From Tubulanus polymorphus (Eukaryota; Animalia; Nemertea), in NCBI RefSeq assembly GCF_964204645.1, contig NC_134029.1, positions 11,682,850 through 11,746,849 on the forward strand: a stretch of DNA of 64,000 bases. The letters are read 5' to 3'. The notes under the pieces were generated by a model. The model was given only the letters and a program-made list of their open reading frames with translations. It made no database searches and was not told the origin of the DNA. Numbering within the stretch: the stretch's first letter is position 1; each line of letters begins with the position of its first letter. The position numbers and the translations under genes were made by a program. Of the stretch, positions 16,382 to 64,000 are shown one piece after another.

Positions 16382-16569
16382 ACATTGCTGTATACATTTT
16401 TTATTTCGGTGAACTTCATCAACTTCTACGGCTTTTCGGCAGTCTTCGCTGCTGCAATTACAACCTCTGATCATCCTTCAAATCCATATTGGGTGTTTTA
16501 TGTCACATACAGTTCTCCAACATTTTGGTTTACTCTCTTGATTACGGTTGTGGTGGCATTGCTTCCAAG
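16382..16569 (+). CDS. P4-ATPase exon (TM9-10)
   Basis: tttcag / gtaaac; ...PSNPYWVF...SPTFWFTLLITVVVALLP(R), ATP10-like; phase 2 end. Confidence 0.9.
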
Positions 16570-27875: not shown

Positions 27876-27943
27876 TGTTCTCTAATTCTCTGGCTTCTTC
27901 TAAGAAGTTTGGTTCATCTCTTTCTCGGCTCGAGGGACCATTA

Positions 27944-45399: not shown

Positions 45400-46025
45400 A
45401 CTTTGATTAAAGAATTCTGGTCTAAATTATAAATTACAAGGCTGAAGATCTTTGTAATATAGAAATAAAAAAATGTAATCTCGATTGTGTAAATAACTAC
45501 AAAATCTGCTTTAAGATTGTATTGTTATGCATTAGTTGTTCGGTCGTTGTTAATGGTGACAGCCGTTCTGCATTGATTGGTTACTGTTAACTGGTATTAC
45601 GCAATAACCGGTCCTATAGGGCCGCTTTTCTGCATTAGTCGTTCGGTCGTTGTTGGTGGAAACGACTGTTCTGTATTGATTGGTTACAGTTCTATGTTTG
45701 AATGTTGTAGTTTACAGAATAAAAATATAACATGTGATTACGCAATAACCGGTCCTATAGGACCGCTTTTCTATTGTTCTCAATTATTTTATCTTCGATC
45801 GTTGTTGATAGAAACGACTGTTCTGTTTTTAGGACGTCGTGGTAACACGACGTCCTGTTGGAATCGTGTAAGTCAGTTTGTTAAGACGTAGATAATTTCT
45901 CGGAAGTGACTGAAAGCTTGGTGCTGTAACTTGCACATTATTTTAGTCATGAATTTTAAAGGATTGAGATTTGTTTCTCGTGGAATTCTATGCGGTAATT
46001 GCTGAGAACTTTCTAAAAAAACATG

Positions 46026-46404
46026 AGTAATAGGGGTAATGGGCTTTCATACCAAAGGTCGAAAGGTCGAGCCCGAGAAATTTTCCAAAATGTTAAATAA
46101 CAACAATTTCTACTTGAATTAGTCGCGTACACTCCTAATTTAAGTAGAAATTATTATTATTTTAACATTTGGAAAATTTATCAACCTCAACCTTTCAACC
46201 TTTGATATGAAAGCCCATTACCCCTATTACTCTTAAATGTTATTCATATATATATGAATAACATTTAAATCATTGAACTTCTAAAATCAATTTTAATAAA
46301 AAATATAGTATTAAAATGGAAGCAAATAAGTACTACTGCCCAACATGTAATATCGATATAGATAAATCCCAAAAAGCAAGACACAATAAAACTAGAACAC
46401 ATTT
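46026..46404 (+). repeat. Left TIR (contains a 206-nt hairpin, a 36-bp palindrome and the pPolB start)
   Basis: Reverse complement of 63592-63971 with only about two differences seen. Confidence 0.95.
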
Positions 46405-49400
46405 AGAGAATAAATTGAAATTAGAATATGAAGATGATATATTAGAAAATAAATTAGAAGAATTAAAGGATGAAAAAGAAACATACAAATGTGATACATG
46501 TAATCAATCATTCAGTGATAAAAGATATTATAAAGAACATTTAAAATCTATAAGTCATATTAGAAATAAGAATAATGATATTTTAGGTGAAGATTATTTT
46601 GATAATGATAACGATAAGAAACAGAAGACAATTAAAAGAATAAAAAATAAATTAAACAATAAAAGGCCATACATGGAAGATGTAAGAAATTATATTAATT
46701 CATTAGATAATAAAAAAGATATAGAGATTACCGAAGCATTTAAAAGTGATATTGGTCCAGCAGCTATCGAGTTTAAATTTCATAAAGGTAAAACATTAGA
46801 AGAAAATAAAAAACATTTAGAAAATATGAAAGAAATAATAAAAATAATTACAGACGTTGAATATCCTAAAATTAGTATATCAGTTAAAGTTAAATTCATA
46901 AAATCTGAAGATAAACCAATATATAATATAAATTCTCATTCACAACATATTATATCTAAACAACATATAGATGATAAATTAAATAAATGTTATAATGAAA
47001 TAAAAAGTAAAATAGAAGAGAAATATTTTGAAGGATCAGGTTTAATATTTGATGAAATAATATTTATGACTTTACATGTTTATAACACAAAATATAATAA
47101 GTTAACTAAATCAAAACCAATTGATGAAAATAATGTATCATATTATAAAGAACCAGATATTGTAGCATCGAGTTATATTAAACTACCATTTAAAACTAAT
47201 GCTGTAATAAATATACAAAATGAAGATGATAAATGTTTTCTATGGGCTATAATAAGTTGTTTACATCCAACAGAAGATATTACACATAGTTTTAGATTAA
47301 CTCATTATAAACCATTTGAAAGTAATTATAAGATAGATAAGTATCCTGTTAGAATTAAAAACATCCCAAAAATAGAAAGAGATAATAATATAAAGATAAA
47401 TGTATTTGATTTAATCAAATTACCAAATACAAAAGGAAATAATATTAAACATTATACATTAGAACCTTTATACCTATCAAAAGATTATGATTCAAATGAT
47501 GTTATAGATATACTATATTATGAGAATCATTACATGTGGATTAAACAAATAGATTTATTTTTCAAATCAGAAAATGATCACCATAAAATATATCTATGTA
47601 GAAAATGTTTACATAGATTCAGTAATGAAAGTACATTATTAAATCATAAACAACTATGTGATAATCATGATTATTGTAAATTAGTTTTACCAAATGAAAA
47701 AGATAAAATATTAGAATTCAAAAAATATGATTACAAAAATAAAGTACCATTTGTAATATATGGAGATTTTGAATCATTAAATAAAGAATTAACAGATAAA
47801 GATAGAAAAGATATATACTATAAAAGAAAGAAATTAAATTCTAATGAAAGTGATTATTCAGAAGACCCACCAAAAACAAATACAATTAAAAAGATTCATC
47901 AATCAGCTGCAGCTTTCGGGTTATATATTAAATCTAATTATCCAGAACTAATCGAAAGTGAATATTATAATTATAGAAATGAAAATGTTATCAATCATTT
48001 TTGTGACTTATTAATTGAATATGAAATAAGATTTAGTAAATTATTGAATACAAATAAAGAAATAATTATGACAGAAGAAGATAAAGAAGAATTTGAGTTT
48101 GCAGATAAATGTTATTATTGTGAAAAGATATTGAATTATAAAGATAAAAAAGTAAGAGACCATGATCATTTGAACGGAAAGTTTAGAGGCGCTGCACATG
48201 AGAATTGTAACTTACAAGCTAAGAAAATTAACTTTGTACCAGTTATATTTCATAATCTATCGGGGTATGACGCGCATTTATTCATCAAACAGTTATGTCA
48301 TAAAATAGAAGAAATCAATAATGAAATAGAAATATTAAATTCAAATAGATCAAAAGATAAAATACCAACTTATAAATTTAGAATGTTAGCTAAAACATCT
48401 GAGAATTATATATCTTTCCAATTTGGATGCTTAAGATTTATAGATTCATATAGATTTTTAAGTAGTTCATTAGATAACTTATCAAAATCATTAGTTGATG
48501 ATGAATTAAAGATATTAAAAGAATATTACCCAAATTATGATGATTTTAAATTAATGAGATATAAAGGAGCGATTCCATATTCTTTCTATAAAAATCATAA
48601 TGATTTTAATATAACTGAATTATTAAAAGAACAATTTTATGATGAATTAAAAAATGAATATGTTAAAGATGAAGTTTATAATAGAACATTGAATATTTGG
48701 AATCATTTCAAAATAGAAAATCATGGACAATTAGTAGATTTATATTTAAAATCAGATGTATTATTATTAACCGATATATTCGAAAGGTTTAGAGATGTAA
48801 ACCTAAAATATTTTAACATTGATCCTTGTCATTGTTATTCATCACCAGGATTAACATGGGATTGTGGATTAAAATTTACAGATATAAAAATGGATTTGTT
48901 AACAAATATAGATCAATTACTATTATTTGAAAAATCTATAAGAGGAGGTGTTTCAGGTGTATTGGGTGATAGATATTTCAATGTAAATGATAATCCTGGA
49001 TATAAATTATTATACATAGATGCAAATAATCTTTATGGTTGGGCAATGATGGAACCACAACCTTATGGGATGTTTGAAATAACTGAAGTTTTACAAATTG
49101 ATAAATTTGATTGGAAGAAAAGAATTCTAGATATTGCAGATGATTCAGATACTGGTTACTTCTTCGTTGTAGATTTAGAATACCCTGAAAATATTAAATT
49201 CAAATCTAGAAATCTAGCATATTGTCCCGAACATAAAACTGTTAAACATGAAGAATTATCAAATTATCAAAAAAGAATTAAACCCGATAATCATATTCAT
49301 ACAGAAAAGTTAATGGTAACTCAAGAAGATAAATATAATTATGTAGTACATTATAGAATGTTAAAATTCTATTTGAATCAAGGAATGATATTAAAAAAAG

Positions 49401-50344
49401 TACATAGATATATTTCATTCAGTCAATCTAAATGGTTAGAAAAATATATAGATTTTAATACTACACAGAGAACTAAATCTAAAACTGATTTTGAAAAAGA
49501 TTTCTTCAAACTAATGAATAATGCATTCTATGGTAAGACTTGTGAAAACATAAGAAATAGAAGTGATATTGAGTTAGTTAGTAATGGTAAAAGAATTAGA
49601 CATTTACAATCGTATCCGAAATTTATAGGCAACAGAATATTCGATGAAAATTTAGCAGCAGTTAAATTAAAAAGAACTTCTATGAAGTTCAATAAACCAA
49701 TCTATGTTGGTGCATCAGTTCTAGAAATTTCAAAATTATTAATGTATCAATTTTACTATAACATATTACAACCCCATTTTGGAGAAAACAATATAGAAAT
49801 ATTATATCTAGATACTGACAGTTATATATTAAAGATAAAAAGTGATAATATAAAAGATGATTTAAAATCATTAAAACATCATTTTGATTTTAGTAACTAT
49901 CCAAAAAATCATGAATTGTTTAGCAATGATAATAAAAAAGTTCCTGGGAAGTTTAAGGATGAATTAGGTGGTGAAGAAATGATAGAGTTCATTGGTATTA
50001 GATCTAAAATGTATTCATATAAAACCAAAACTCATGAAGCTAAAAAGTTAAAAGGAATAACCAAAAGTGTAGTAGAAAAAAATATTCATTTTAAAGATTA
50101 CATCAATTGTATATTTAATGAAGAAGTTAGAAAACATAAAATGAAATGTTTAAGATCTGAAGATCATGAAATGTATATTGAAGAGATAGAGAAGATAAGT
50201 CTAAACCCATTTGATGATAAAAGATATATTTTAGATGATGGAATCCACACAGTCGCCTATGGTTGCAATTTAGATGAATATATAAAATTCAAAAGAGAAG
50301 AAACAAAAGAAAATGAGATTATGAAAAGGATTCTAACGTGTTAA
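46316..50344 (+). CDS. Protein-primed family B DNA polymerase (pPolB) with C2H2 fingers, OTU-like and EndoVII-like domains
   Basis: Exo I VIYGDFES, Exo II FHNLSGYD, Exo III YLKSDV; Pol A YIDANNLYG, Pol B KLMNNAFYGK, Pol C YLDTDS; CYYC...DHDHLNGKFRGAAHENCN insertion. Confidence 0.96.
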   Translation: MEANKYYCPTCNIDIDKSQKARHNKTRTHLENKLKLEYEDDILENKLEELKDEKETYKCDTCNQSFSDKRYYKEHLKSISHIRNKNNDILGEDYFDNDNDKKQKTIKRIKNKLNNKRPYMEDVRNYINSLDNKKDIEITEAFKSDIGPAAIEFKFHKGKTLEENKKHLENMKEIIKIITDVEYPKISISVKVKFIKSEDKPIYNINSHSQHIISKQHIDDKLNKCYNEIKSKIEEKYFEGSGLIFDEIIFMTLHVYNTKYNKLTKSKPIDENNVSYYKEPDIVASSYIKLPFKTNAVINIQNEDDKCFLWAIISCLHPTEDITHSFRLTHYKPFESNYKIDKYPVRIKNIPKIERDNNIKINVFDLIKLPNTKGNNIKHYTLEPLYLSKDYDSNDVIDILYYENHYMWIKQIDLFFKSENDHHKIYLCRKCLHRFSNESTLLNHKQLCDNHDYCKLVLPNEKDKILEFKKYDYKNKVPFVIYGDFESLNKELTDKDRKDIYYKRKKLNSNESDYSEDPPKTNTIKKIHQSAAAFGLYIKSNYPELIESEYYNYRNENVINHFCDLLIEYEIRFSKLLNTNKEIIMTEEDKEEFEFADKCYYCEKILNYKDKKVRDHDHLNGKFRGAAHENCNLQAKKINFVPVIFHNLSGYDAHLFIKQLCHKIEEINNEIEILNSNRSKDKIPTYKFRMLAKTSENYISFQFGCLRFIDSYRFLSSSLDNLSKSLVDDELKILKEYYPNYDDFKLMRYKGAIPYSFYKNHNDFNITELLKEQFYDELKNEYVKDEVYNRTLNIWNHFKIENHGQLVDLYLKSDVLLLTDIFERFRDVNLKYFNIDPCHCYSSPGLTWDCGLKFTDIKMDLLTNIDQLLLFEKSIRGGVSGVLGDRYFNVNDNPGYKLLYIDANNLYGWAMMEPQPYGMFEITEVLQIDKFDWKKRILDIADDSDTGYFFVVDLEYPENIKFKSRNLAYCPEHKTVKHEELSNYQKRIKPDNHIHTEKLMVTQEDKYNYVVHYRMLKFYLNQGMILKKVHRYISFSQSKWLEKYIDFNTTQRTKSKTDFEKDFFKLMNNAFYGKTCENIRNRSDIELVSNGKRIRHLQSYPKFIGNRIFDENLAAVKLKRTSMKFNKPIYVGASVLEISKLLMYQFYYNILQPHFGENNIEILYLDTDSYILKIKSDNIKDDLKSLKHHFDFSNYPKNHELFSNDNKKVPGKFKDELGGEEMIEFIGIRSKMYSYKTKTHEAKKLKGITKSVVEKNIHFKDYINCIFNEEVRKHKMKCLRSEDHEMYIEEIEKISLNPFDDKRYILDDGIHTVAYGCNLDEYIKFKREETKENEIMKRILTC

Positions 50345-50372
50345 TAAATTTCAATAAAAATTTGTATAATAA

Positions 50373-50714
50373 ATGGAGAGTAAACAAGTACACAGTGAAT
50401 TCTTAGATAGAATTAAAGATACTTCAAGCGTTAAATCTGTAGATTATAAATTCAAAAAGTTAACAGAATTAACAATTCACAAGAAATATTTAATTACTAA
50501 CATTGAAACAATTACTAATAAATATGGAGATAAATTAGTAATTCATTTAGAATATGAAGGATTAAAAGGAAATATATATAAATTCAGAACTTATTTACCA
50601 GATAGATTTCATAGATTATCAAGTGAAGATCTAGAAGAATTATGTTCTGGAGATTTCTATTTCGTATACAAAGGTAAGAATGAAAAAGGGCACCATGAAA
50701 TAGATTTCGAATGA
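50373..50714 (+). CDS. Small Polinton protein, possibly an OB-fold ssDNA-binding protein
   Basis: Intact ORF with TAAATG start next to pPolB; KKL.EL...Y.I...NKYG...YLP.RF pattern; function is inference. Confidence 0.55.
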   Translation: MESKQVHSEFLDRIKDTSSVKSVDYKFKKLTELTIHKKYLITNIETITNKYGDKLVIHLEYEGLKGNIYKFRTYLPDRFHRLSSEDLEELCSGDFYFVYKGKNEKGHHEIDFE

Positions 50715-50729
50715 AAATATGTAAAATAA

Positions 50730-51487
50730 ATGGTAGAATTAAAAGAATACAGAATATTTGTAGATTCTAGAAAACTTACAAATTATAAATCTCATAATTT
50801 ATTAGTACAATTAGATAGAGAATTCAAGAATTGTGTAGATTTAAAATTAGTAAATATAAGTTTATGTAATTCTTTTTATAATATATCGAATAAAACTATT
50901 GAACATAATACTTTTTTAATTCATATTAGAAATATAAATAAATGGTTTCATCTATTTCTAAGACCAGGATTATATAATTTAGAAACATTATCTCAAGAAA
51001 TTAATCGTAGAGCACGGTTGAAAATTAGAAAAGATGATAAATTTTTAATAAGATTTATAAAAAGTGATAGCTCAAATAGAATTAAAATAAAGGTATTTGA
51101 TGAAAGTCAACATGCATTTATGGTAAAAAAACCTATAGCTAAATTGCTAGGAATTGAACCAGATGTTGTTACTGTAAACGTAGAAGGTATTTCAAATATA
51201 ATACCTTTTACACATTTTTATATTTATTGCAATTTAATTGACCCAACAAAAACATTTGAAGCAACTAAAGATACAACATGTAATTCTAGTATATTAAATA
51301 TTTTACCATTAAAAAATGTTAAAGAATTTGGAACGCAAATAAATTATAATTTAACAGAATGTGATTTCAAACCATGCATTCCTAGTTTTAATAATTTTAG
51401 ATTAGAAATTAGAAATCATAATGGATACTTAATTGATTTAAAAATTTCCCTGTAATTTATGAATTAGTTATAAGATGTAAAGAGTAA
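50730..51487 (+). CDS. Minor capsid (penton-like) protein; probable 1-nt frameshift near 51440
   Basis: IFVDSR...NSFYNI...PGLYN...FYIYCNLID...LEIRNHNGYLID pattern; restoring one T gives a FPVIYELVI terminal strand ending at TAA 51487. Confidence 0.75.
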
Positions 51488-51504
51488 TTTTTTTCACTAT
51501 ATAA

Positions 51505-51846
51505 ATGAATATAACTGTTGGACCGAGTATATGTTTTGGGTTTGATTTTAAACATGGTAAAGAAATGAGAATTAAACTAAATGATGTAATTACTGATATA
51601 AAAAGTAAATCATTTAACAATGCATCAATGATTGATAAAGAAAAGTATAATATAGAAAAAGTAATTGATTTAATTAAATCACCTTTAGAATATTATGAAT
51701 TAAATGAAGATGGAATTATTGAAGATATTAAAAACATATTATCCAAAATATATGATAATCATAAAACTAGTAATGAAATAAATGTTGAATTAATCATAAA
51801 TAAGTTAACTAAATATTTTGAAGATAGTAATTTTTTTGATAAATAA
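51505..51846 (+). CDS. Hypothetical protein
   Basis: Intact ORF, shared start motif, tight gene packing. Confidence 0.65.
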   Translation: MNITVGPSICFGFDFKHGKEMRIKLNDVITDIKSKSFNNASMIDKEKYNIEKVIDLIKSPLEYYELNEDGIIEDIKNILSKIYDNHKTSNEINVELIINKLTKYFEDSNFFDK

Positions 51847-52068
51847 ATGAGTGATAATAAGTGGATAATAACTGGATTATATAATGGCGCATTACTATCA
51901 GTTGGAACGGTTGGTTATTCAATGGTATTAAAAAAAGTATTCAAAATGGGAAGTGTTAATGTTGATAGATTTGATATAAATGATATTTTGAAATTAACAT
52001 TAGCAGTTACTTTATCTAATTTAACTATTGATTATTTGGAAAAACAAAAATATATTCCTCCCATATAA
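51847..52068 (+). CDS. Small hydrophobic (putative membrane) protein
   Basis: Two hydrophobic segments; shared start motif. Confidence 0.65.
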   Translation: MSDNKWIITGLYNGALLSVGTVGYSMVLKKVFKMGSVNVDRFDINDILKLTLAVTLSNLTIDYLEKQKYIPPI

Positions 52069-52092
52069 ATGCATAATTTTTTTGCTAAATAA

Positions 52093-52515
52093 ATGGCTTC
52101 TGCAATTATAACTATTATAGGATCGGCAATCGTTAACGCTTTAGCATTTACTGGTGGTGGTTATTTATTTAAACATATTGATAAAAATAGTTCATTAGGA
52201 GAACAAAGAAGACATAACTTAGCGTTAGAGAAATACAATAAAGCTGCAGAAGAATATAGAGAAAAGAGACAAAACTATATGGATTACATCAATAAAGAAT
52301 TATATGATCAGAAGATTTCACATAGAGATTTTCAATCAGTTGATGATGCAATGAGTTTATATAACACAGTAACAAATAAAGAAAAATTACATCTATACAA
52401 ACCTAAATTATCAGATTATTATACCCCAAGTAAAGAACAACAGAAATATGAAATAATATGGATTTTAGGTGGAACAGTTATTGTTATATTTGTTGCTTAT
52501 AAGTTTACTAATTAG
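52093..52515 (+). CDS. Putative membrane protein (N- and C-terminal hydrophobic segments, central coiled coil)
   Basis: MASAIITIIGSAIVNALAFTGG...RRHNLALE...IIWILGGTVIVIFVAY. Confidence 0.75.
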   Translation: MASAIITIIGSAIVNALAFTGGGYLFKHIDKNSSLGEQRRHNLALEKYNKAAEEYREKRQNYMDYINKELYDQKISHRDFQSVDDAMSLYNTVTNKEKLHLYKPKLSDYYTPSKEQQKYEIIWILGGTVIVIFVAYKFTN

Positions 52516-52534
52516 TAATTTTTATTCTAAATAA

Positions 52535-52969
52535 ATGGAAGATAAAGTTGATAGTATTGATATTATTCCTCATGATATAAATAAAACTAAATTAAAAACA
52601 TATTTAGAAAAACAAATATTAGAATTTGAAAGTGACTTAAAGATAAAAAAGAAAAAATATTTAAAAAGTAAAATTATATATTATTTGATTATAAGTGGTT
52701 CGGTTACAATTAGTTCTGTAATAACATTTCTAGCAATATTCAGTCCATTAACACCTTTAGCTATATCAATTGGTGTGTTAGGATTAAGTTCAAGTGTTTT
52801 AACCGGTATAAGTTCAAAATTAAATATAAAAAGTAATAAAGAAAAAATAAAATCTAATATAAAAGAAATTAATAAATTAAAGAACACACTAGATTATATA
52901 ATAAGTTTAAATGGTCATATAACAGTTGAAGAACAAGATAAATTATTAAAAGAATTGATAAATTATTAA
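52535..52969 (+). CDS. Putative two-TM coiled-coil protein
   Basis: Hydrophobic hairpin IIYYLII...ISIGVLGLSSSVLTGI between coiled coils. Confidence 0.75.
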   Translation: MEDKVDSIDIIPHDINKTKLKTYLEKQILEFESDLKIKKKKYLKSKIIYYLIISGSVTISSVITFLAIFSPLTPLAISIGVLGLSSSVLTGISSKLNIKSNKEKIKSNIKEINKLKNTLDYIISLNGHITVEEQDKLLKELINY

Positions 52970-52985
52970 TTTTTTAATTATATAA

Positions 52986-54374
52986 ATGGTAGATAGTTTT
53001 CCAAAAGCTTTCCAATATAATAAATCAATTAAATATAATATTCCAGCAATAGATTTTAATAAAGATATTACATATAGAAATGAAGTTTTAGATTCATTAA
53101 TTGATTTATATATTTATGTTACTGAAACTATTTATTTTAATGCAAAGATGGAAAATATATTTCATGTATATTTAATTAATTTTAAAAAATTGAAAGATGA
53201 AAAACAATGGTTATTAAAATCTTATATAAAGTATTGGCAGAACCAATTAAATTTTGCTGTTTATTGTGCAACAACAGGATGTGGAATTAGTTGGAATGAT
53301 CATTTGAATAATTCTAAATATAAACTAATTCAAAGTTTATTTAGATTTCATACATACTTTCAAATCAGAATAATATTAAATGAATTAGAGTGCGCTTTAC
53401 CAGGATCTAGGTATTTTAAAGAATTAGATAATAATATTAATTTATCTAAGTTTTATAAAATTTGCAATGAATTTAATATAAATATAAATAATTCTGATTT
53501 TAGAACAAAAATTGGAACAATAAGATCACTTCCTTGCCCTAGAAAGATTGCAGAATATTGTGCTCTTCCCATACCATCTAATAGTTTTTATAATATCTAT
53601 AATAAAAAATTAGGTTATGGTAAAATAGAAACAAAGGATTTAGAAACATTAAATTTCAATAAATTACCAAAATTTTATGATAATTTAAAACAAGAAAACA
53701 ATAATGGTTGGGTTTATTTTATTTTAGAAAATAGTGAAGGTTTTACTAAATCAGGTATAGAAAGAATAAATCAATCTATTAGAACTTATTTGATATGTAT
53801 TTTAGGTGCGCAAGTTGAAACAAGATCACCGATAATTGGAAATTTGAATACATCATTCGATACACAAAAACAGTTTAAAGTTTTATTTGAAGATTCCATA
53901 CATAATGATAAAAATAGATCGATTCCAGAAAACATTATAAGATATCAAAATTATTTAGATAAATCTCATGTAAGACTTAATTATTGTATAGGCACTAATC
54001 TATTAATTATTTCTAATGATTTAGTATTAAAGATGGGAAACATAATTGGTTATAATAATCTAATTAAAACTGCAACAATAAATAATTCATTTGGATTGAA
54101 TGATATAAATAAAAAGATTATTACTGCTCCAAAATTAATGGAAGGTGAAAAAAATAAAAAACATATTCAATCAACAGAAACTAAAACTAATAATATTAAA
54201 TTAAATAATGATTCTAAAATAAAAGATTACAATACATCAGAAAATATAAAAACTGATAATATTCAACATGATATAATTAAACTAAATGATGATAATAAAT
54301 CCCATGAAAATACTAAATTAGCTATAACTTGTATAGGAATTGTAATCGGAGGAATATTATATTTTAAATTTTAA
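52986..54374 (+). CDS. Uncharacterised protein with C-terminal TM anchor
   Basis: 462 aa; YWQNQLNFAVYCATTGCGIS block; ends LAITCIGIVIGGILYFKF. Confidence 0.8.
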   Translation: MVDSFPKAFQYNKSIKYNIPAIDFNKDITYRNEVLDSLIDLYIYVTETIYFNAKMENIFHVYLINFKKLKDEKQWLLKSYIKYWQNQLNFAVYCATTGCGISWNDHLNNSKYKLIQSLFRFHTYFQIRIILNELECALPGSRYFKELDNNINLSKFYKICNEFNININNSDFRTKIGTIRSLPCPRKIAEYCALPIPSNSFYNIYNKKLGYGKIETKDLETLNFNKLPKFYDNLKQENNNGWVYFILENSEGFTKSGIERINQSIRTYLICILGAQVETRSPIIGNLNTSFDTQKQFKVLFEDSIHNDKNRSIPENIIRYQNYLDKSHVRLNYCIGTNLLIISNDLVLKMGNIIGYNNLIKTATINNSFGLNDINKKIITAPKLMEGEKNKKHIQSTETKTNNIKLNNDSKIKDYNTSENIKTDNIQHDIIKLNDDNKSHENTKLAITCIGIVIGGILYFKF

Positions 54375-54390
54375 TTTTTTTATTATGTAA

Positions 54391-56067
54391 ATGGATGTAG
54401 AAGGTGGAGAAGATTATGAAATGGGAGAAATGGGAAATAATAATGAAGGATATATTGATGATGATTATAATGATGCAGAAACTAATATTGATAATAATGA
54501 TGAATCAGCATATAATACTAATTTAGGTGAAGATGATGATTCCGAATTACGTGAAAAATTAAATAAATATTTAGAAGCTCCTGAAAGGGGTAGAATTTCA
54601 ACTAGAAGAGAAAGAAAAGAATTTATGGAACTATTAGTAAAAGAACAAGAAAAATATCCTGATAAACCTATGGAATTATATAGAATGAAATCTAGAGTAA
54701 CAGATACAATTGTTAACGAATTATTACCAAAAGTTGTAATAGATGAAATTGATACTGAAGATGTTGTAGAACAAACTTTTAAAGATGACCCATATTTCAC
54801 AAATAATTTAGAATTTAAAAATGATGCATGGTATTATAATCTTGATTTAAATAGGAATACTGTATCAATTCAATTATCTAGAATGGGTCAAGAAAATATT
54901 TTTGAACCTGGAATGCGAGCATTATCTACAATTGAAGGTTCAAAAGGTGGTAGAGAATTTCTCAGAATTATATGGAATGCAATCGATAGAATAAATGAAG
55001 AAGAACCAATTCCTAAAATTGATATAAACAAATATTCACCATTTAAAAATCCAAATCCAAATCCTACTGATGTTGATCCAGAAACTGATGAAGATTTTGC
55101 ACATCGATTAGATAAATTAAGATCTTCAACACCCGAAACATCGAGAAGAGACACTCAACAAATTGATAATGATTCAAGTCAATTACAATTAACATTAGAA
55201 AAACAAATTGATAGATTAAGAGATTCAGAAGAACTGATGAATAGTATATCAGATACATCTGGTTCTGAAACTGGAATAAATCGAATACAATCTTTACTAG
55301 AAAAAGGATTACTTGATTTAACTGATGAAGAATTAGAAGCATTTCCTGAAAAAACACGTAGAGAAATTAAAGGTATGCAAGAATCAGCTGGTGAAATTGC
55401 TAATATTAAGATGAGATTTTCTAAAATAACCATGTTAGAAAAAGAATTAACTAATGCAAATGAAGAATTAAAACAATTAGAATTAAATAGAGATCTTCAA
55501 TTAATCGAGGAAGCTGATTTTGAAAGCAGAAAGTTAGCTTTAGAAAAAGAAATAGATGATTTAAAATATAACAAAGAATAACAGGAAAAAGAAAGAGATA
55601 TATTATTAAAATCATATGATCTTAATCATATTAAAAAATTAAAAGTTATTTTTAAAGATTTGTTGATAAAACCAAATTCTGAAATATAATTAAAAGACAG
55701 AATAAAGTTATTATTTAAATTAGAAGGAATAACAATTCTTTCAATTCTAACAGCTGTAACTATGTTATTTACAACAATAGGTTTAGCTATATCAAATGCT
55801 TTAAAATCTACTCCTACTCCCAATAAACCAGATAAACCTCCAGGTAATAATTCTATACAAGATAAAGTTAAGGATGGTTTAAAGAACTATCTAAAAAATC
55901 TGCTGCAGCATTGCCAGGAGTTATTGCTTCAATTGTTGGTTTTATATTGAAATCTGCAGGAAACATTATTAACTTTGCTGCTGAACATATTATTTTATTT
56001 TTAATTACAGTTGTAAGTGCTATTATTTTTGGGTTAGTAAATATGATATCAAAAAATATCAAGTAAA
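54391..56067 (+). pseudogene. Acidic coiled-coil protein with C-terminal multi-TM region; two in-frame TAA and a frameshift
   Basis: Frame continues past TAA 55581 and TAA ~55689 into LKDRIKLLFKLEGITILSILTAVTM..., then shifts to KSAAALPGVIASIVGFILK...HIILFLITVVSAIIFG. Confidence 0.7.
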
Positions 56068-56110
56068 CCATGATATCAAAAAATAAATAATTAATTTTTT
56101 TGTTAAATAA

Positions 56111-57358
56111 ATGAGTGGGAGTTATATCAGTCCTTCTAAGATTTCTAGAATATCTAATGCTATTAAAGCAGAAAGATCACATCATATAATTACTCATAAC
56201 CCTTCAAATATTAATCCCGATGAAACTTTATACGTTAGAATCCCTCGATTAACACAAAATACTTTTTATGTTCCAAACAGTATTTATTTATCAGCTGATA
56301 TAAAAGTAATCGGTAATAATAATAATTATGTCGTTGATAATGTTGGAAGATATTTGATTAAAAAGTTAACAATAAAGATTGGTCCAGAAACAGTTTTCTC
56401 ATTAGATGATTATAATTTATTTATGCATTATAAAGATTTATGGTTAACTAAAGAAAATAGAAATAATATGATATTTCAAGGCATCCAATCAGAAAACCAA
56501 AATAAATTAAGATCAGAAGCTAATAGCGCAATATTAACAAATGATGTAGATAAATTGATAAAAAGTATATATGGAAGCAAATATAAAATTCCATTAGACT
56601 TTGAATTGATAAATAATAATGCACCTTTATATAAATACGCAATTCAAGAAGATATTATATTTGAGATAACATTTGCTCCTGTAAATGAAATTGTATTATC
56701 TAGCGTTGTTAAAGATATGAGTTATAAATTATCGAATATATGTTTAGAATATGATACAGTAACTGATGAAAATATTTCAAGTATAATTCAAACTCAATAC
56801 AATCAAGGATTTTCATTATTATATGATTATATTGATAAATTTAAAACTGTAACTATTAATGCAAATGATGAAATAATTAATGAGAATATTAACTTCCCTA
56901 GAAGATCTATTAAAGGTATATTAATATTTTTTACTATTGGAACATATACTAATGGCGCAATAAATGTTGACAATTATTATAATCCTGAAATAACAAAAGT
57001 AGAAATAACTATCGAAGGTATAGCGAATAAAATATTTTGTCAAGGAATGAGAATGATTGATCAATGGGTAGAAATTAAAAAACATTTTATGAATGAAAAA
57101 ATAAAATCATTTGAAAATTGTAACATTAATCAAATTGATTATTATACCGGTAATAAATATGCATTATGGTTAGATTTTAGAACAACAGAGGATAATTCAT
57201 TACATGGTTCTGGAAAAAAACTACAAAATACAAAAGATGGAATACAATTATTCATGACAAAGAAAAAGGGAATCAAAAATTTTAAAATGCACATTTATAT
57301 TATATCTGACGCGCAATTAAATATTGTAAATTCACAATTAGATAGTGTTATGTATTAA
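56111..57358 (+). CDS. Major capsid protein (double jelly-roll, putative)
   Basis: 415 aa, beta-rich; HNPSNINPDETLYVRIP...LIKKLTIKIG...YKLSNICLEYD...YIISDAQLNI; size and context fit a Polinton MCP. Confidence 0.8.
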   Translation: MSGSYISPSKISRISNAIKAERSHHIITHNPSNINPDETLYVRIPRLTQNTFYVPNSIYLSADIKVIGNNNNYVVDNVGRYLIKKLTIKIGPETVFSLDDYNLFMHYKDLWLTKENRNNMIFQGIQSENQNKLRSEANSAILTNDVDKLIKSIYGSKYKIPLDFELINNNAPLYKYAIQEDIIFEITFAPVNEIVLSSVVKDMSYKLSNICLEYDTVTDENISSIIQTQYNQGFSLLYDYIDKFKTVTINANDEIINENINFPRRSIKGILIFFTIGTYTNGAINVDNYYNPEITKVEITIEGIANKIFCQGMRMIDQWVEIKKHFMNEKIKSFENCNINQIDYYTGNKYALWLDFRTTEDNSLHGSGKKLQNTKDGIQLFMTKKKGIKNFKMHIYIISDAQLNIVNSQLDSVMY

Positions 57359-57390
57359 AATTTTAACTTTAATAAAAATATATATAATAA

Positions 57391-58314
57391 ATGGAAGGAG
57401 GTAAAGTATATAAACATATTCCATACATCGATACACATGAAAATAATGATGGTTTATATTATGTAATACCTTGTAATATAGCTTTGATATTTGATCCTAT
57501 TTTTAAAAATTATAAAACTAAACTGATAGAAATCGATAATAATAAAAGTGGTGTTGTTAATAATAATGTAATACCTACTACTACATCTGTAATACCTACT
57601 ACTACATCTGTAATACCTACTACATCTGTAATACCTACTACATCTAATAACGTAATACCTTCTACATATAATAATGCAATATTATTAGATGTTAGTGAAA
57701 ATAGAAATTATTGTGGTTATTGTAATGGTGAATTTTCAAACGCTCCATCAAATTGGAATAAACATATGAATACAAATTCACATATTACTAATGTTATAGA
57801 ACGTGTTGGTAAAAAAGAATTTATAGAACACCCATTTAGATATGTTACAAAATTTGTTTCAAATAAAAAAGTAAATGGTGAAAAAATATATGAAGATTTA
57901 TTATTAGCAACACCTAATAAAGATGAATTAGATTTAACCGATGCTAATGAAATATTAGGATCAAACACTGTAAATGAAATATTAGGAGCAAACACTAATA
58001 AAGATGATAATGAAAATGATGCCATACACCCACATGACCCACATGATGATATAGTTACAGTTAAACATATTGATAATAAAGATTCTATAAAACTTAAAGT
58101 AGAAAATAATAATAAATTTGATTGGAAGAATAAGTTTAAAAATGAAACAACTATTGATGATTTAGTAAAAAATATGAAAAAAGTGAAAAAGGTGAAAAAG
58201 GTGAAAAAAAATTATAAAGATGGTGATGTAGATTCGGTAGAGCATTTAAATATGTTGTTAGAGCCGTCTGATAGTGAAAGTGATTCAGAAATTGATTATC
58301 TAAAACTCGAATAA
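57391..58314 (+). CDS. Zinc-finger protein with Thr-rich tandem repeat
   Basis: (VIPTTTS)n repeat, CGYC...H...H finger, KKVKKVKK basic patch. Confidence 0.7.
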   Translation: MEGGKVYKHIPYIDTHENNDGLYYVIPCNIALIFDPIFKNYKTKLIEIDNNKSGVVNNNVIPTTTSVIPTTTSVIPTTSVIPTTSNNVIPSTYNNAILLDVSENRNYCGYCNGEFSNAPSNWNKHMNTNSHITNVIERVGKKEFIEHPFRYVTKFVSNKKVNGEKIYEDLLLATPNKDELDLTDANEILGSNTVNEILGANTNKDDNENDAIHPHDPHDDIVTVKHIDNKDSIKLKVENNNKFDWKNKFKNETTIDDLVKNMKKVKKVKKVKKNYKDGDVDSVEHLNMLLEPSDSESDSEIDYLKLE

Positions 58315-58372
58315 TAAAGGTTGAAAATTGTATAAAATAATAGTAAATAAAAAAGGGGGTTTAAATTATTTA

Positions 58373-58463
58373 AGGTATCTAATAGGGTATCAGGTATTAG
58401 GGTATCAGGTATTAGGGTATCAGGTATTGGGGTATATAATAGGGTATCTAATACATAGGTATA
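58373..58463 (+). repeat. 15-bp minisatellite at the convergence of the two transcription blocks
   Basis: (AGGGTATCAGGTATT)n, about 3 full and several degenerate units. Confidence 0.85.
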
Positions 58464-58470
58464 CAAATAG

Positions 58471-59085
58471 TTATTTTATAAACTTATATTCATATGGAAA
58501 TTGTAATCTCATAAGTAATTTTGAACCTTTATTATTTTTTAATTTATTCATATATTCATCATGTAATTCAGGAGGTATAATTTGATTTTCTTCTAATGAT
58601 TGTTGCATAGATTTTTTATCTTTGTTGTAGAATAAAACTAGAAATCTTATATTCTCTCTAAAATCTTTAACAATTGAATTATATTTCTGATTTAAAACCC
58701 AAGTTGTTATACCAAAATGTCTACCAGAGAAAGCTAAATAACATAACTCACTTTCTCTAATTTTAGAATCATGTAAATTTGCGCAATCATCGATAATAAA
58801 TAATGTATTAGATCCTTTATAAATATCTAATGCAATTTTTATACAATTATCTAAATTATCTTTTACTGTTTTAGAATTTAATATAATAAAATTTTTATCT
58901 TTAAAAACTATATCTCTATTATACGTTTCATTCATTTCATAAGTAGGACAGAATAATATTATATTATCAAAATGATTTTTATAAATAGTTTCTAACAAGT
59001 CTAATATGAAATGTGTTTTACCACAATTCGTAACTCCAGTAACTAACATATTATGCGGTTCAAATATAAATAAATCTTTATTCAT
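58471..59085 (-). CDS. Genome-packaging ATPase (A32/FtsK-HerA family)
   Basis: Walker A GVTNCGKT, Walker B LFIIDD, SGRHFGITTWVLNQ motif. Confidence 0.92.
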   Translation of the reverse strand: MNKDLFIFEPHNMLVTGVTNCGKTHFILDLLETIYKNHFDNIILFCPTYEMNETYNRDIVFKDKNFIILNSKTVKDNLDNCIKIALDIYKGSNTLFIIDDCANLHDSKIRESELCYLAFSGRHFGITTWVLNQKYNSIVKDFRENIRFLVLFYNKDKKSMQQSLEENQIIPPELHDEYMNKLKNNKGSKLLMRLQFPYEYKFIK

Positions 59086-60163
59086 TTATTCTTTTAATTT
59101 TACTAGATAAAATCCATTCATTAAATTTATCATCATATCCTTTATATTTCACCAAAGAATACTTTTTTCCTTTAAGAGTTTTTGTTTTCAATACCTTTTC
59201 TATTTTGTATTCTATTTCATCTGGATTTGGTACTAATGATAATTCTTGTTCATAAAAATAACCTAATATTTCTTCATCTTTTAAATCAAACAATTTATAA
59301 ACAAATGGTTTAGTTAATATTATCTTTTTAATTTTAAATATTTCTTCAGTAAAATTAGGGGTATAACCTTTATAAAATGTTTTTCGATATTTAGAAATTC
59401 TAACATGTTGTCCTATTTTAAATTTAGGTTCTCCAAAATCATGTGTAACAAACGCGCCATATAAATTATTCCAAACTATTTCTGAATTTTCTTCTTTTCT
59501 AGCTTGTATAGGTTTCATATTTATAGAACTATGTTTAGAATTATTATAACCTTTCACTAAATCATCTAACACATCGATATATTTATATGTTTCATTAGCG
59601 GTGAAATATTTCCACATTCTAGTTTTCAATGTTTTATTAAATCTTTCTATAACAGATGCTTTTTTATCTGAATGTGTTGAAAAATATTCTACATCGTTAT
59701 CAGTTAATAGTTTTTTAAAATGTTTGTTATAAAATTCTTTACCTTCATCAAATTGTATTTTATCTGGGATAGCTTCTTTAAATATTAATTTGAAAGAATT
59801 TGTAACTTCTATACCAGTTTTATTTTTGATTGGAATTGACCATGCGTATCTACTGAATATATCTATAACATTTAGTATCCAAAAATATCCTTTGTTGTAT
59901 TCTTCTAAGTTTTTCATATCAATTAAATCAGCTTGCCATTGTTGGTCAATATATGAAACCATTACTTTTCTTGTTAAATAAGTTTTATCCATTTTCTTGT
60001 GGATTTGATATGTGGGTTGATTTTGTAACCATGATTTTAATTCACTATATTTTATTTTTTCTTTATCAGATTTAATTTTATCCCATAATTCCGAAACACT
60101 TGAATATGAAACTTCACTTTCTGGGTTGTAATATAAATCTCTTAAATATTGTTCTTTTTTCAT
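59078..60163 (-). CDS. Retroviral-like (rve) integrase with C-terminal chromodomain
   Basis: DDE triad WQADLIDM / IQFDEGKEF / VIERFNKTLK; chromodomain YKIEKVL...LVKYKGYDDKFNEWI. Confidence 0.95.
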   Translation of the reverse strand: MKKEQYLRDLYYNPESEVSYSSVSELWDKIKSDKEKIKYSELKSWLQNQPTYQIHKKMDKTYLTRKVMVSYIDQQWQADLIDMKNLEEYNKGYFWILNVIDIFSRYAWSIPIKNKTGIEVTNSFKLIFKEAIPDKIQFDEGKEFYNKHFKKLLTDNDVEYFSTHSDKKASVIERFNKTLKTRMWKYFTANETYKYIDVLDDLVKGYNNSKHSSINMKPIQARKEENSEIVWNNLYGAFVTHDFGEPKFKIGQHVRISKYRKTFYKGYTPNFTEEIFKIKKIILTKPFVYKLFDLKDEEILGYFYEQELSLVPNPDEIEYKIEKVLKTKTLKGKKYSLVKYKGYDDKFNEWILSSKIKRINE

Positions 60164-60169
60164 CTTATT

Positions 60170-60565
60170 TTAATCCATTAATAATATTTTAGATTTATTT
60201 TCATTTGATTTATGATTTGACTTATTTTCGGGTATGATAGGTTTATTGTCATTGGAATCATCTTTATCATCAGATTTGAATTTTGATTTATATATTACAC
60301 CGGATAATATAATAACTGTTACTAATCCAATTGTAATATATAATTTATAATTACTTCCAACATTAGAAGAATTAGATGGATTATTATTTGAATCAATACC
60401 ACCGTGTGGGTGCCGTACGACACCATCAGATAAAGTCTGTGATTCATTTATATCAGTTAATTTCTTTTTCTTAGCTTTTTTTAATTCTGATGATCTTTTA
60501 CCTAATTCTCTTGCCCATTTAATTTGTTTCTCGGATCTAACCTTTTTTTTAACTCCATCACTCAT
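60170..60565 (-). CDS. Basic protein with a single TM segment
   Basis: RSEKQIKWARELG N-terminus; LYITIGLVTVIILSGVIY. Confidence 0.7.
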   Translation of the reverse strand: MSDGVKKKVRSEKQIKWARELGKRSSELKKAKKKKLTDINESQTLSDGVVRHPHGGIDSNNNPSNSSNVGSNYKLYITIGLVTVIILSGVIYKSKFKSDDKDDSNDNKPIIPENKSNHKSNENKSKILLMD

Positions 60566-61160
60566 TTATTTTAGTTAATTTTTGTTCTGATTCATTTTCT
60601 GTTTCGACGTTTGGTTGTAGTACATCTGTTTCGTTCTTACCTGATTTACATTCCATAGGTTTGATGTTCGAAAATGTTATAACTCCAGTAGAAATCAATG
60701 TCATAACCGATCCTAATTGAAATGAAGCATATCCGACCCATTTTTGTAATTCAGTCATAACTAAGTAGTCATTTTTCAAATCATTATATAATTTATTTTC
60801 ATCATCAATTGGTATTAACTGGTTACATAACTTAGAGTAACATTTGACAATACCATCTGAAATAGAATCATTTATTCTAGCTAATCTTGCTTCTTCATAA
60901 ATCTTAAAATATTTTATTACTTTATCTGGTTTCATAGCATCTAGGTCTTGAAAAGTAATGATTCTATTTAAAAACTCATTAGTTTTTCCACCAGCAATCA
61001 ATAGTTCTATATGATGCTTACAATATAAATAGTATTCATAATCTATATTGTTATTAACTTGAATAGAATTAGAAACAACTGTATCTTTATTATCACTTAT
61101 ACCCAAATCATCTAATGTTTTTTCAATATCAGTATTATTCTTACTCGATTTCTTTGACAT
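60558..61160 (-). CDS. Hypothetical protein with hydrophobic C-proximal segment
   Basis: Intact ORF overlapping the next gene by 8 nt; shared start motif. Confidence 0.7.
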   Translation of the reverse strand: MSKKSSKNNTDIEKTLDDLGISDNKDTVVSNSIQVNNNIDYEYYLYCKHHIELLIAGGKTNEFLNRIITFQDLDAMKPDKVIKYFKIYEEARLARINDSISDGIVKCYSKLCNQLIPIDDENKLYNDLKNDYLVMTELQKWVGYASFQLGSVMTLISTGVITFSNIKPMECKSGKNETDVLQPNVETENESEQKLTKINE

Positions 61161-61418
61161 TTATATTAGAGAAATTTAATAAGAAAAATATTATAAGTAT
61201 TATAAAATGATACTAGCTAGTTAAAGCTAAAGAATTCTAGTATTGACTACTGATACTAGCTATTTGAATTTAAAGAATTTCTATTCGGATCTATTCAAAA
61301 TATAAAGTATTCTCTTTTTGAAAAGAAAATATTAAAAATATAATAGAATTCACTAGCTAGTTGAAGTTATTGTTTTTTAAATACTTTTTATTATATTTTA
61401 TTTGAGATATATTATTCT

Positions 61419-62084
61419 TTAACCACTCATTAAAGACTCAACGTATTGTTCATTATTTGGATTATTATTCCATAATTCAAAAAATTTTTTTACTTTATCC
61501 AGTTGATTCAAATATAACTGTAAATCTAGTTTGTCATGTTTAATCATATTTTCTTTCTTTTCAAGAGGTCTTAAATTTCTCCAGTTCCAGATTAGCTTCT
61601 TATTATAATCATCATTCATGTTAAATTTAGATATTGGTAACACGTGATCAATATGGTAATAATCCCCATAATTATCAATATTCATTTTATCATCGAATTG
61701 AAATATAATCCATGATTTGAGAAATTCATCTGAACAACCCAATAAATTAGATAGTGTTTCTGAATATGTTTCTTTGTTAAATAATTGTGTTAATCTAGAC
61801 CGTAAACATTGTTTCAATCTAAAATTAAGATCTGTTTGATATCTTTCTCTCATATATTCTGTCATATAATCATTATAAGATTCTCTATTATCTTCTCGAT
61901 ATTGTTTGGTATATAGTTTAATGCAAGTTTTACAGTAATATTGAAAACCATCTTTGCTAATCTTACGCTTACTAAATTCTGTTAATGATTTATCTAATTC
62001 ACATTTAGAACACTTTTTGTAATATATGTTTATAACGCCAGTGTTATTTGTAATATTGATAGTTTGTGGTTGTTCTGGTTCCAT
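61419..62084 (-). CDS. HNH endonuclease (intact)
   Basis: KKCSKC...CKTC zinc ribbon; YHIDHVLPISKF...WNWRNLRPLEKKENMIK. Confidence 0.85.
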   Translation of the reverse strand: MEPEQPQTINITNNTGVINIYYKKCSKCELDKSLTEFSKRKISKDGFQYYCKTCIKLYTKQYREDNRESYNDYMTEYMRERYQTDLNFRLKQCLRSRLTQLFNKETYSETLSNLLGCSDEFLKSWIIFQFDDKMNIDNYGDYYHIDHVLPISKFNMNDDYNKKLIWNWRNLRPLEKKENMIKHDKLDLQLYLNQLDKVKKFFELWNNNPNNEQYVESLMSG

Positions 62085-62219
62085 TTATTATACGTATTTT
62101 TTTACTAAATTGGTTAATAATTTATAATCCTCTTCTATTTCTTCGACTAACGTTATCCTTTTTCATTCCTAGCTGCTTTTGATAAGTTTTTTCGATTCCT
62201 TGATATCTAAATCATACAA

Positions 62220-62560
62220 GCAGCCGGCCATTTATGGCCGGTTTTGCTTAATGCGCATGCGTTAAACATAATTATAAATTCATTCTATAAATTCTGTAAA
62301 ATAGAAACAACACATGCGTTACATGTGTCACATGCGGCCATTGATGGCCGGTTTTGCTTAATGCACATGTGTTAATCCTAATTATATATTCATTCTATAA
62401 ATTCTGTAAAATAGAAACAACTGAACATAGAAAATTCAAACGCATTCATGTCCCTCGTCACATGCGTTACATGTGTCACATGCGTCACATGCGGCCATTT
62501 ATGGCCGGTTTTGCTTAATGCGTATGTGTTAAACATAATAGAAACGACTGAACATAAAAA
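62220..62560. repeat. Three imperfect repeats with GGCCATTTATGGCC palindromes and CACATG boxes
   Basis: GGCCATTT(A/G)ATGGCCGGTTTTGCTTAATG-type units at ~62226, 62336 and 62493. Confidence 0.8.
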
Positions 62561-63172
62561 TTCACAAATCAGATTTACACAATACATTATACAAGTTGTT
62601 CAGTCATTTCTTCTAATACATCATTTGATTTCTGTAAATACAATTTATAATTACAAACATTTTTTCAATTGCTGGTAAATATTTAACTACATCAACAAAT
62701 GTTAAACTTAATCATTGGAGTCTTAATGTTTTTGAAATTCTTATATTTCTTCTTCGATCTTTTAGCGATTCTATTGGTTTGATATCCACCGGTTTGTGCG
62801 TGTTTAATTTGACACCAGTTCCACAGTTGTATATAGGTTTATTTGACTCTGGGCCTAGTTCCACAGTTATCTAAAAGATATATCAAAATATAAATTGCTA
62901 CACATAAATATATTTAAAGGTTTCATATTTAGCGGCCTTAATAAACAAAAACTGTACTTACATTTAACTCACGAACTGTAAACTGTATATGATGTGGTGT
63001 TTATGAGACTGTTATGATACAACGTTTATGAGAATATCCTGGTTATGACACAATGTTTATGAGACTATATCCGTTGAAAAGCGATCGATATATGCTGGTA
63101 TTTCGTTCTGTGTGTGTATACGCAACTAATTGCTTTTCACCCGTAGACTGTCAAGCGTCTGATGTGCGCGCC

Positions 63173-63250
63173 TATTTATACTATTCTATGCTCAGAAACA
63201 TCTAGAATAAGTGTGTTGAGACTTGCGAATTATGAGATTTTTGATTGGTT
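63173..63250 (-). promoter_or_regulatory. Putative Pol II promoter (CCAAT plus TATA)
   Basis: Minus strand CCAAT at 63244-48 and TATAAATA at 63173-80, upstream of a GT-AG intron at 62871-62961. Confidence 0.45.
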
Positions 63251-63506
63251 AGAGCTTAGTTGTCCAGAAACATCTAAAAAGCGCGTTGAGACTTGTAAAT
63301 TATGAGATTTGTGATTCGCTAACGTCCGCCGTATGATGTATAATACACAACGCGTTGAGACTTGTAAATATAGTTGAAAAAAAATCAATAATAAAGGCAT
63401 TTAGATCAATGAAATTAATTAACTCTTTACAATTGAAATATAAGCTGGTAACATATGTTTACTAGAGCTAATACAACCAACTATATAGCTGAGTATTATC
63501 GGGTGT

Positions 63507-63680
63507 TTATAACGATTCAACATATTTTTCACTATATGTTGAGTTCCTTAATTCGATAAATGTCTTTGCTTTAACCAACTGGACTAAAAACAAATGTGTT
63601 CTAGTTTTATTGTGTCTTGCTTTTTGGGATTTATCTATATCGATATTACATGTTGGGCAGTAGTACTTATTTGCTTCCAT
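63507..63680 (-). CDS. 57-aa chimeric ORF: pPolB N-terminal zinc finger fused to HNH C-terminal tail
   Basis: MEANKYYCPTC...KTRTH plus LFLVQLVKAKTFIELRNSTYSEKYVESL; open and in frame. Confidence 0.5.
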   Translation of the reverse strand: MEANKYYCPTCNIDIDKSQKARHNKTRTHLFLVQLVKAKTFIELRNSTYSEKYVESL

Positions 63681-63971
63681 TTTAATACTATATTTTTTAT
63701 TAAAATTGATTTTAGAAGTTCAATGATTTAAATGTTATTCATATATATATGAATAACATTTAAGAGTAATAGGGGTAATGGGCTTTCATATCAAAGGTTG
63801 AAAGGTTGAGGTTGATAAATTTTCCAAATGTTAAAATAATAATAATTTCTACTTGAATTAGGAGTGTACGCGACTAATTCAAGTAGAAATTGTTGTTATT
63901 TTAACATTTTGGAAAATTTCTCGGGCTCGACCTTTCGACCTTTGGTATGAAAGCCCATTACCCCTATTACT
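63592..63971 (-). repeat. Right TIR
   Basis: Reverse complement of 46026-46404. Confidence 0.95.
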
Positions 63972-64000
63972 AACATGCGATTTTGGCTCGTTTTGGTTGT

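Follow-up and report, generated by a model that had tools for sequence, protein, structure and literature searches.

A Polinton in the nemertean Tubulanus polymorphus with gene starts resembling poxvirus post-replicative promoters

What switches on the Polintons integrated in animal genomes, and whether these elements are autonomous viruses, is an open question, and an element that carries a poxvirus-type promoter set makes it testable. Here, we analyzed a stretch of 64,000 nucleotides (the window, whose numbering is used throughout) from Tubulanus polymorphus (NCBI RefSeq assembly GCF_964204645.1, contig NC_134029.1, positions 11,682,850 to 11,746,849 of the forward strand), which contains a complete Polinton. 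An earlier note on this DNA had claimed that nearly every gene of the element begins in TAAATG, that the starts fall into an early and a late motif class, and that the element is read by the RNA polymerase of a cytoplasmic helper virus. Which polymerase reads these genes is the question followed below.

A recount confirmed that TAA directly precedes ATG in 14 of the 16 main open reading frames (ORFs), the exceptions being those of the protein-primed DNA polymerase B (pPolB; TAAAATG) and the integrase (TAAGATG). Inside the same ORFs, TAA stands before 26 of 301 out-of-frame ATGs, and the enrichment at starts is significant (binomial p=1e-13, Fisher p=3e-12); in-frame internal ATGs are unusable as a control because TAA there is a stop codon. 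The ORFs and their promoters, with classes named after the poxvirus promoters discussed below, are as follows (aa, amino acids):

46291-46318, + strand: pPolB promoter, intermediate-like; core TTTTAATAA at -22 to -14, initiator TAAAATG
46316-50344, + strand: protein-primed DNA polymerase B, 1342 aa; zinc fingers and endonuclease VII insertion
50349-50714, + strand: 113-aa ORF (ATG 50373) with intermediate-like promoter; candidate single-stranded DNA-binding protein
50730-51455, + strand: 241-aa conserved ORF, TAAATG; putative minor capsid protein; family of 28
51485-51846, + strand: 113-aa ORF (ATG 51505) with late-like promoter; TAATTTTT at 51485
51828-52068, + strand: 73-aa hydrophobic ORF (ATG 51847); late-like promoter within the upstream ORF
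52074-52515, + strand: 140-aa hydrophobic ORF (ATG 52093) with late-like promoter
52516-52969, + strand: 144-aa two-helix membrane ORF (ATG 52535) with late-like promoter; weakly SLATT-like
52967-54374, + strand: 462-aa conserved ORF (ATG 52986) with late-like promoter
54372-56054, + strand: broken conserved gene (ATG 54391) with late-like promoter; stop at 55579-55581, frame change near 55872-55893
56092-57358, + strand: double jelly-roll major capsid protein, 415 aa (ATG 56111), with late-like promoter
57367-58314, + strand: 307-aa zinc-finger ORF (ATG 57391) with intermediate-like promoter; class kept in 3/3 homologues
58471-59085, - strand: A32-type packaging ATPase, TAAATG (PF04665, E 1.6e-12)
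59078-60163, - strand: rve integrase with chromodomain, TAAGATG (domain search)
60170-60565, - strand: 131-aa ORF, TAAATG
60558-61160, - strand: 200-aa conserved ORF, TAAATG; family of 47
61419-62109, - strand: HNH/endonuclease VII ORF (ATG 62084); A-rich promoter, core shifted about one base

The motif TAATTTTT occurs 14 times in the element, counting both strands, and seven copies stand upstream of seven successive starts. A motif before these seven genes had been reported with a spacing of 6-10 bases; it is present at all seven, but the spacing is tighter than that, with a fixed distance to the start of 19 bases (six starts) or 20 bases (one start). Neither promoter class cleanly describes the starts of the ATPase, the integrase and two or three other ORFs. 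Two further arguments, short gaps and an AT-rich core, hold as measurements. The intergenic gaps are 28, 15, 49, 0, 24, 19, 16, 16, 529, 32, 156, -8, 6, -8 and 258 bases, 11 of 15 being under 45 (in the one of 529 lies the broken 3' portion of the 54391 gene), and the GC content is 0.235 in the core versus 0.384 in window positions 1-41000. However, neither argument discriminates, since L044, a relative that lacks TAAATG, is equally compact and TAAATG loci span a wide range of GC content.

To place these starts in context, relatives were collected by a capsid alignment search (the best 80 of 198 metagenome matches and three loci from a genome collection), and a quick maximum-likelihood tree with midpoint root was built from 81 capsid rows, with three short loci left out and support given by the Shimodaira-Hasegawa-like approximate likelihood ratio test (SH-aLRT) only. 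We dropped 12 near-duplicate loci, and L068 was put in the clade by identity. The window falls in a capsid clade of 27 rows (SH-aLRT support 100). Among starts checked by homology, TAA precedes 50 of 53 in 21 non-redundant loci of this clade, whose GC content ranges from 0.20 to 0.44, and 0 of 6 in two clade loci (L015 and L044). In the 48 loci outside the clade it was found at 0 of 94 starts, 20 of which belong to loci with a GC content below 40%. Chance is the simplest alternative, considering that the core is so AT-rich and that the motifs were chosen after looking at the sequence; with a p value of about 1e-13 in the window, replication in independent loci up to GC 0.44 and a complete absence from the AT-rich outsiders, we regard it as negligible, and the claim that TAAATG exceeds the expectation from composition was borne out.

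Gene order varies among clade members, which provides a second line of evidence. In 12 head-to-head gene pairs TAA is kept at 23 of 24 starts, and in tandem genes it is the stop codon of the upstream gene in only 4 of 54 cases. A TAAATG that withstands rearrangement in this way is not explained by composition, by stop-restart translation or by the poly(A) signal of an upstream gene. Stop-restart translation of a polycistronic mRNA, with TAA being the stop of an upstream gene or of a short upstream ORF, finds one suitable junction in the window, where TAA abuts ATG with a gap of 0 (51846/51847), and two overlaps of 8 bases; yet TAG or TGA stands at -3 in only 1 of 53 checked starts, and this explanation appears very improbable. 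The TAAATG start is a real lineage trait of one capsid clade.

The surroundings of these starts were compared with poxvirus promoters using 92 TAAATG starts, 14 from the window and 78 from relatives. T rises to 0.57-0.84 at positions -12 to -9, and A is about 0.6 at -15 to -13. T is found at -10 in 69 of the 92 starts versus 57 of 174 TAAATG sites that are not starts (p=5e-11), and in 16 of 17 capsid genes. According to PMC11980589, vaccinia late promoters combine TAAATG with a conserved T ten bases upstream, whereas intermediate promoters have TAAA, no such T and an A-richer upstream region. As a control, TAAATG was observed at 10 of 23 starts in a 20-kb orthopoxvirus stretch and at 125 of 290 chordopoxvirus starts, representing 16 of 35 loci. 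The T profiles of the clade and the chordopoxviruses were correlated in register (r=0.81 at offset 0, against 0.55 at -1 and 0.64 at +1), and the four-base profiles gave r=0.52, a value reached in 0 of 200 shuffles, compared with 0.05 when non-start sites are used and 0.09 with AT-rich outsiders. With chordopoxviruses as the stand-in, the sequence thus shows both features that mark a poxvirus late promoter, a T at -10 and a TAAATG that spans the start codon. TAAATG is also annotated across a fish poxvirus genome (PMC4542343), so the motif is old among poxviruses. The T-tract had been read as an early terminator, which we do not uphold; because it lies at a fixed distance from TAAAT and is present at several head-to-head starts, it behaves like the T element of a late promoter. 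A separate observation is that in a close relative (L003:10340-10981) a late-like TAAATG promoter precedes a gene for deoxynucleoside kinase (E 2e-31).

The second class stands at pPolB, 50373, 57391 and 62084, the four genes where it had been described, although the exact consensus given for it fits only three of them, the fourth, 50373, being longer by one base. With the T of TAAA taken as -1, the sequence from -22 to -14 is TTTAAATAA in the orthopoxvirus G8R promoter, TTTTAATAA at pPolB, TTTCAATAA at 50373 and CTTTAATAA at 57391, so that the pPolB and 50373 cores each equal the vaccinia G8R core in 8 of 9 bases, in register. This intermediate-like core was found at 5 of 78 relatives' starts versus 0 of 125 controls. 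The G8R core is reported at -26 to -13 without strict consensus, and TAAA is reported to be read by the polymerase itself (PMC12917281). The earlier note had assigned this class to an early programme. However, the poxvirus early core AAAANTGAAAA was found upstream of 0 of 16 window starts and 0 of 78 relatives' starts. Considering this absence, the alignment of the pPolB core with G8R and the fact that TAAA initiators are described as post-replicative (PMC11980589, PMC12917281), the second class is better read as intermediate-like than as early, as far as can be judged from base patterns.

Several other signals were evaluated. TTTTTNT, tried as an early terminator, was rejected: it occurs 26 times in clade ORFs versus 61.5 expected and also lies inside pPolB (47998), and T5, T6, A5 and A6 are depleted too, indicating a general avoidance of runs. 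AATAAA is not depleted either in clade ORFs (66 versus 62) or outside the clade (63 versus 70), and hence does not discriminate on cytoplasmic transcription; depletion of splice donors, another candidate test, did not discriminate either. Motifs of mimivirus, Cafeteria roenbergensis virus (CroV) and baculovirus, the yeast upstream conserved sequence and trans-splice acceptor motifs were not enriched at starts.

Virophages use the promoters of their helpers, and the layout found here is of poxvirus type; transcription in the cytoplasm by a helper polymerase is therefore likely. That some helper polymerase reads the element we hold to be quite likely; more specifically, it is probably the RNA polymerase of a helper of poxvirus type, present by co-infection, that transcribes the genes, which would make the element a virophage-like Polinton whose replication genes have intermediate promoters and whose virion genes have late ones. 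After replication of the helper, its intermediate factors would read the A-rich class (the polymerase, the gene resembling a single-stranded DNA-binding protein and two zinc-finger/nuclease genes), and its late factors would then read the class with the T-tract, to which the capsid and membrane genes belong. Initiation would take place within TAAAT and be followed by slippage, so that transcripts would carry a 5' poly(A) leader instead of a 5' untranslated region; such leaders, formed by slippage on a TAAAT-type initiator, are described for vaccinia and yeast elements (PMC6211774). The element's own polymerase would copy it, its own ATPase and capsid would package it, and the integrase would return it to the germ line. 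Poxvirus early factors act inside the virus core, and the lack of early promoters is what would be expected if the element never enters the helper core. Of the original helper-polymerase proposal, then, the motifs, their conservation across the clade and the poxvirus post-replicative layout stand, whereas the early class, the terminator and the arguments from gap length and GC content do not.

A number of observations weigh against a poxvirus-type helper. The match is inexact: T peaks at -9 in the clade (0.84), and A at -1 and -2 is 0.71 and 0.54 there versus 0.32 and 0.35 in poxviruses. The poxvirus control promoters are orthologues and hence not independent of one another, and the intermediate core, which has little consensus as described in PMC12917281, was compared with a single promoter. 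In a smaller test the AT-rich outsiders reached r=0.44 with poxviruses (23/500), and a looser motif, a T-patch with TAAAA, stands at 16 of 44 of their starts (shuffled mean 4.4, maximum 12). In these loci (L016, L019-L021, L029, L050, L060, L061, L081 and L082) the starts often read T-patch plus TAAAA(A)ATG, and no such motif was found in GC-rich outsiders. Moreover, coral Polintons, whose promoter type is unstated, are expressed with no mention of a helper (PMC11131425). Finally, AATAAA overlaps 10 of 16 starts in the window and 30 of 78 in relatives, above shuffles.

The last two points also bear on the possibility that the host RNA polymerase II (Pol II) reads the element in the nucleus, TAAATG and the T-patch being either a compact host-type initiator or a translation context combined with the poly(A) signal of the upstream gene. 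A-rich start contexts are indeed common outside the clade (16 of 20 have AAA), integration requires the element to reach the nucleus, and the coral Polinton genes are transcribed. On the other hand, AATAAA is lacking at 48 of 78 relatives' starts, at head-to-head starts there is no upstream gene for it to terminate, and 17 AATAAA lie within the pPolB ORF. In addition, T at -3 is fixed in the clade and absent in AT-rich outsiders, and a translation context leaves the T-patch 10 bases further up unaccounted for. We therefore consider Pol II an unlikely reader of these genes.

The search for a poxvirus-type helper itself was negative, which likewise counts against it. A motif scan of 7/64 of the viral collection, covering 120 loci, gave no TAAATG-rich helper candidate, the best locus with more than four ORFs having TAAATG at 4 of 9 starts. 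Scans with poxvirus polymerase gave only close chordopoxvirus genomes (62% identity or more), and domain, protein and fold searches revealed no gene shared specifically with poxviruses; when the proteins of one poxvirus locus were compared by BLASTP with all Polinton ORFs, a single weak match appeared (E 0.006). Scans of the viral contig collection with capsid, ATPase and polymerase found no relatives of the element.

Another reading has a helper that is not a poxvirus but likewise owns a cytoplasmic polymerase initiating at TAAA. It could be an unsampled lineage of Pokkesviricetes, for example, or a linear plasmid or sister element that encodes the polymerase itself, as yeast virus-like elements do. 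A single literature search turned up no poxvirus report for marine invertebrates, and in PMC6211774 the yeast pGKL elements are described as initiating at TAAAN, with poly(A) leaders at the 5' end. Within the TAAATG clade, L044 (over its whole length) and L015 have no TAAATG and instead carry TATA(G) a short distance upstream of most starts (12 of 14 have TATA versus 4.1 expected, often with TTTTCT about 10 bases above; GC 0.49), which resembles the late initiator of African swine fever virus (ASFV) as given in PMC7458399; a switch to an asfarvirus-type helper in these loci is possible. Nevertheless, the T-patch of the window element lies at the poxvirus position, ATNTGA, the upstream element of the yeast system, is lacking or depleted (1 of 78 versus 8.8 shuffled), and ASFV uses TATA rather than TAAAT. 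A non-poxvirus helper thus seems improbable, and a poxvirus-type helper remains the favored reading. As a side observation, a Bcl-2 protein (E 2e-18) is encoded in L044 as well, together with a weak VLTF3-like ORF (E 6e-4, below the cut-off).

The element itself is a Polinton by its anatomy. It measures 17,946 bp, starts with AGT and ends with ACT, and has terminal inverted repeats of 380 bp (99.5% alike) within a 6-bp target-site duplication:

46020-46025, + strand: left target-site duplication AACATG (copy at 63972-63977)
46026-63971, no strand: whole Polinton (repeat and duplication analysis)
46026-46404, + strand: left terminal inverted repeat, with the pPolB promoter and first 30 codons
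63592-63971, - strand: right terminal inverted repeat, with a second pPolB promoter copy facing inward

The outer 207 bp of each repeat (46026-46232 and 63765-63971) form an imperfect palindrome (86%), which could fold back during replication, and repeated blocks lie at 62225-62540 between the HNH gene and the right repeat.

With regard to gene content, the window pPolB is 34% identical to the polymerase of L022, which matches PF03175; the window ORF itself has no PF03175 match, Pfam giving Endonuclease_7 and zinc fingers only, and a Pfam-level search found no OTU domain at its N-terminus. The predicted capsid structure (predicted local distance difference test score 87) matches iridovirus and Paramecium bursaria chlorella virus 1 capsids in Foldseek (E about 1e-16). 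For the 50373 ORF the nearest named Atlas cluster is the phi29 single-stranded DNA-binding protein (score 0.84), a lead only, and the 241-aa ORF, the candidate minor capsid (penton) protein, has a Pfam match only below threshold. The SLATT matches of the membrane protein at 52535-52969 recur, all below cut-offs. No Atlas or viral fold match was found for the 462-aa protein, and the search with the 307-aa protein gave no matches; that with the HNH protein gave seven, all unnamed. The gene broken at 54391-56054 is conserved in 41 relatives' ORFs, and the remaining 15 window ORFs are open. No adenain protease was matched in window ORFs and no such family was recognized among the 83 relatives, although a divergent protease could escape; RNA polymerase subunits gave no match in the 16 window ORFs and 61 relatives' ORFs.

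Outside the main element, a fragment of a related one (42413-43653; 72-88% identical to parts of the main element) has sequence resembling the terminal repeat and polymerase promoter fused to a frameshifted HNH gene. The host flank contains a P4-ATPase-like exon and a decayed BEL/Pao retrotransposon (16012-18711 and 22485-27881), consistent with an animal nuclear genome. In about a tenth of a DNA run labelled with the same species, the left flank and most of the element were matched by 49,987 reads, the majority of them at 90-99% identity, and 1,076 reads run out of the left terminus into unlike sequence (agreement 0.34), so that this is a multi-copy family with many insertion sites. There was no pile-up of read ends at the left terminus, a result uninformative for protein-capped DNA. 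In addition, 76 reads (run X6) lead from the terminal-repeat promoter (46293) into sequence matching the 57391 promoter (57374) over 23 bases, which suggests that other family members start the terminal gene with the same class and TAAATG.

Taken more broadly, we tentatively propose that a deep clade of animal Polintons may represent endogenous virophages of undiscovered poxviruses, with a two-step, intermediate-then-late programme, although we would not put this above an even chance. Promoter type would then mark the helper, sister lineages would have switched to asfarvirus-like TATA, integrated copies could brake poxvirus infection in animals, and the clade would map unknown poxviruses. If this is true, the virophage lifestyle reaches beyond protists to elements integrated in animal genomes, satellites of poxviruses are common, and unknown helper viruses can be predicted from promoter motifs.

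We found no report of poxvirus-type promoters in Polintons in the literature searched, which was exclusive of subscription journals, Repbase and supplements, those of PMC11296320 and PMC8502044 being ones that could bear on it. The word promoter is absent from the main text of the adintovirus study (PMC8502044), a nematode study (10.1101/2023.08.22.554363) and the coral study (PMC11131425). Animal Polintons/Mavericks, described as adintoviruses in PMC8502044, share with the window element the inverted ends, 6-bp duplication, pPolB, rve integrase, A32 ATPase, double jelly-roll capsid and small membrane genes; as presented there, adintoviruses are defined with an adenain protease, which the window element lacks as far as our searches could recognize. 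Polinton-like viruses (PLVs) were co-sequenced with entomopoxvirus occlusion bodies (PMC11296320). As described there, these PLVs (AHEV_PLV1/2 and CBEV_PLV1) are likewise Polinton-like, poxvirus-linked and proposed as hyperparasites, but differ in their size of about 12 kb, the presence of a protease and the lack of an rve integrase; compared by description, their link to poxviruses is physical, whereas that of the window element is regulatory. The main text of that study has zero occurrences of promoter, motif, transcription or TAAAT. The yeast elements pGKL1/2 (PMC6211774) resemble the window element in being linear and AT-rich and in having pPolB and a TAAAN initiator; by that account they encode their own polymerase and use ATNTGA, while the window element is without ATNTGA and has a capsid, an ATPase and an integrase.

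Vaccinia late and intermediate promoters share with the element TAAATG over the start codon, T at -10, an A-rich patch above, divergent pairs about 30 bp apart and a G8R-like core; the element, known from sequence alone, differs in a T peak that is broader and one base closer, A-richer positions -1 and -2, and no early class. Among protist endogenous virophages and PLVs (mavirus/EMALE with CroV, Sputnik, Gezel-14T with the Phaeocystis globosa virus virophage, PgVV, and Tetraselmis PLVs), which are also integrated small DNA viruses, mimicry of the promoters of a large helper is reported for mavirus, Sputnik and PgVV/Gezel (10.1101/2022.07.28.501842, 10.1101/2025.10.09.676808). The window element is not a lavidavirus, the mavirus capsid ranking 43 or lower by Foldseek and no protease having been found. 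Protist virophages and PLVs use Imitervirales motifs (AAAATTGA; TCTA), neither of which is enriched in the window element, and compared with them it stands apart in its animal host, its poxvirus-type motif and its two motif classes.

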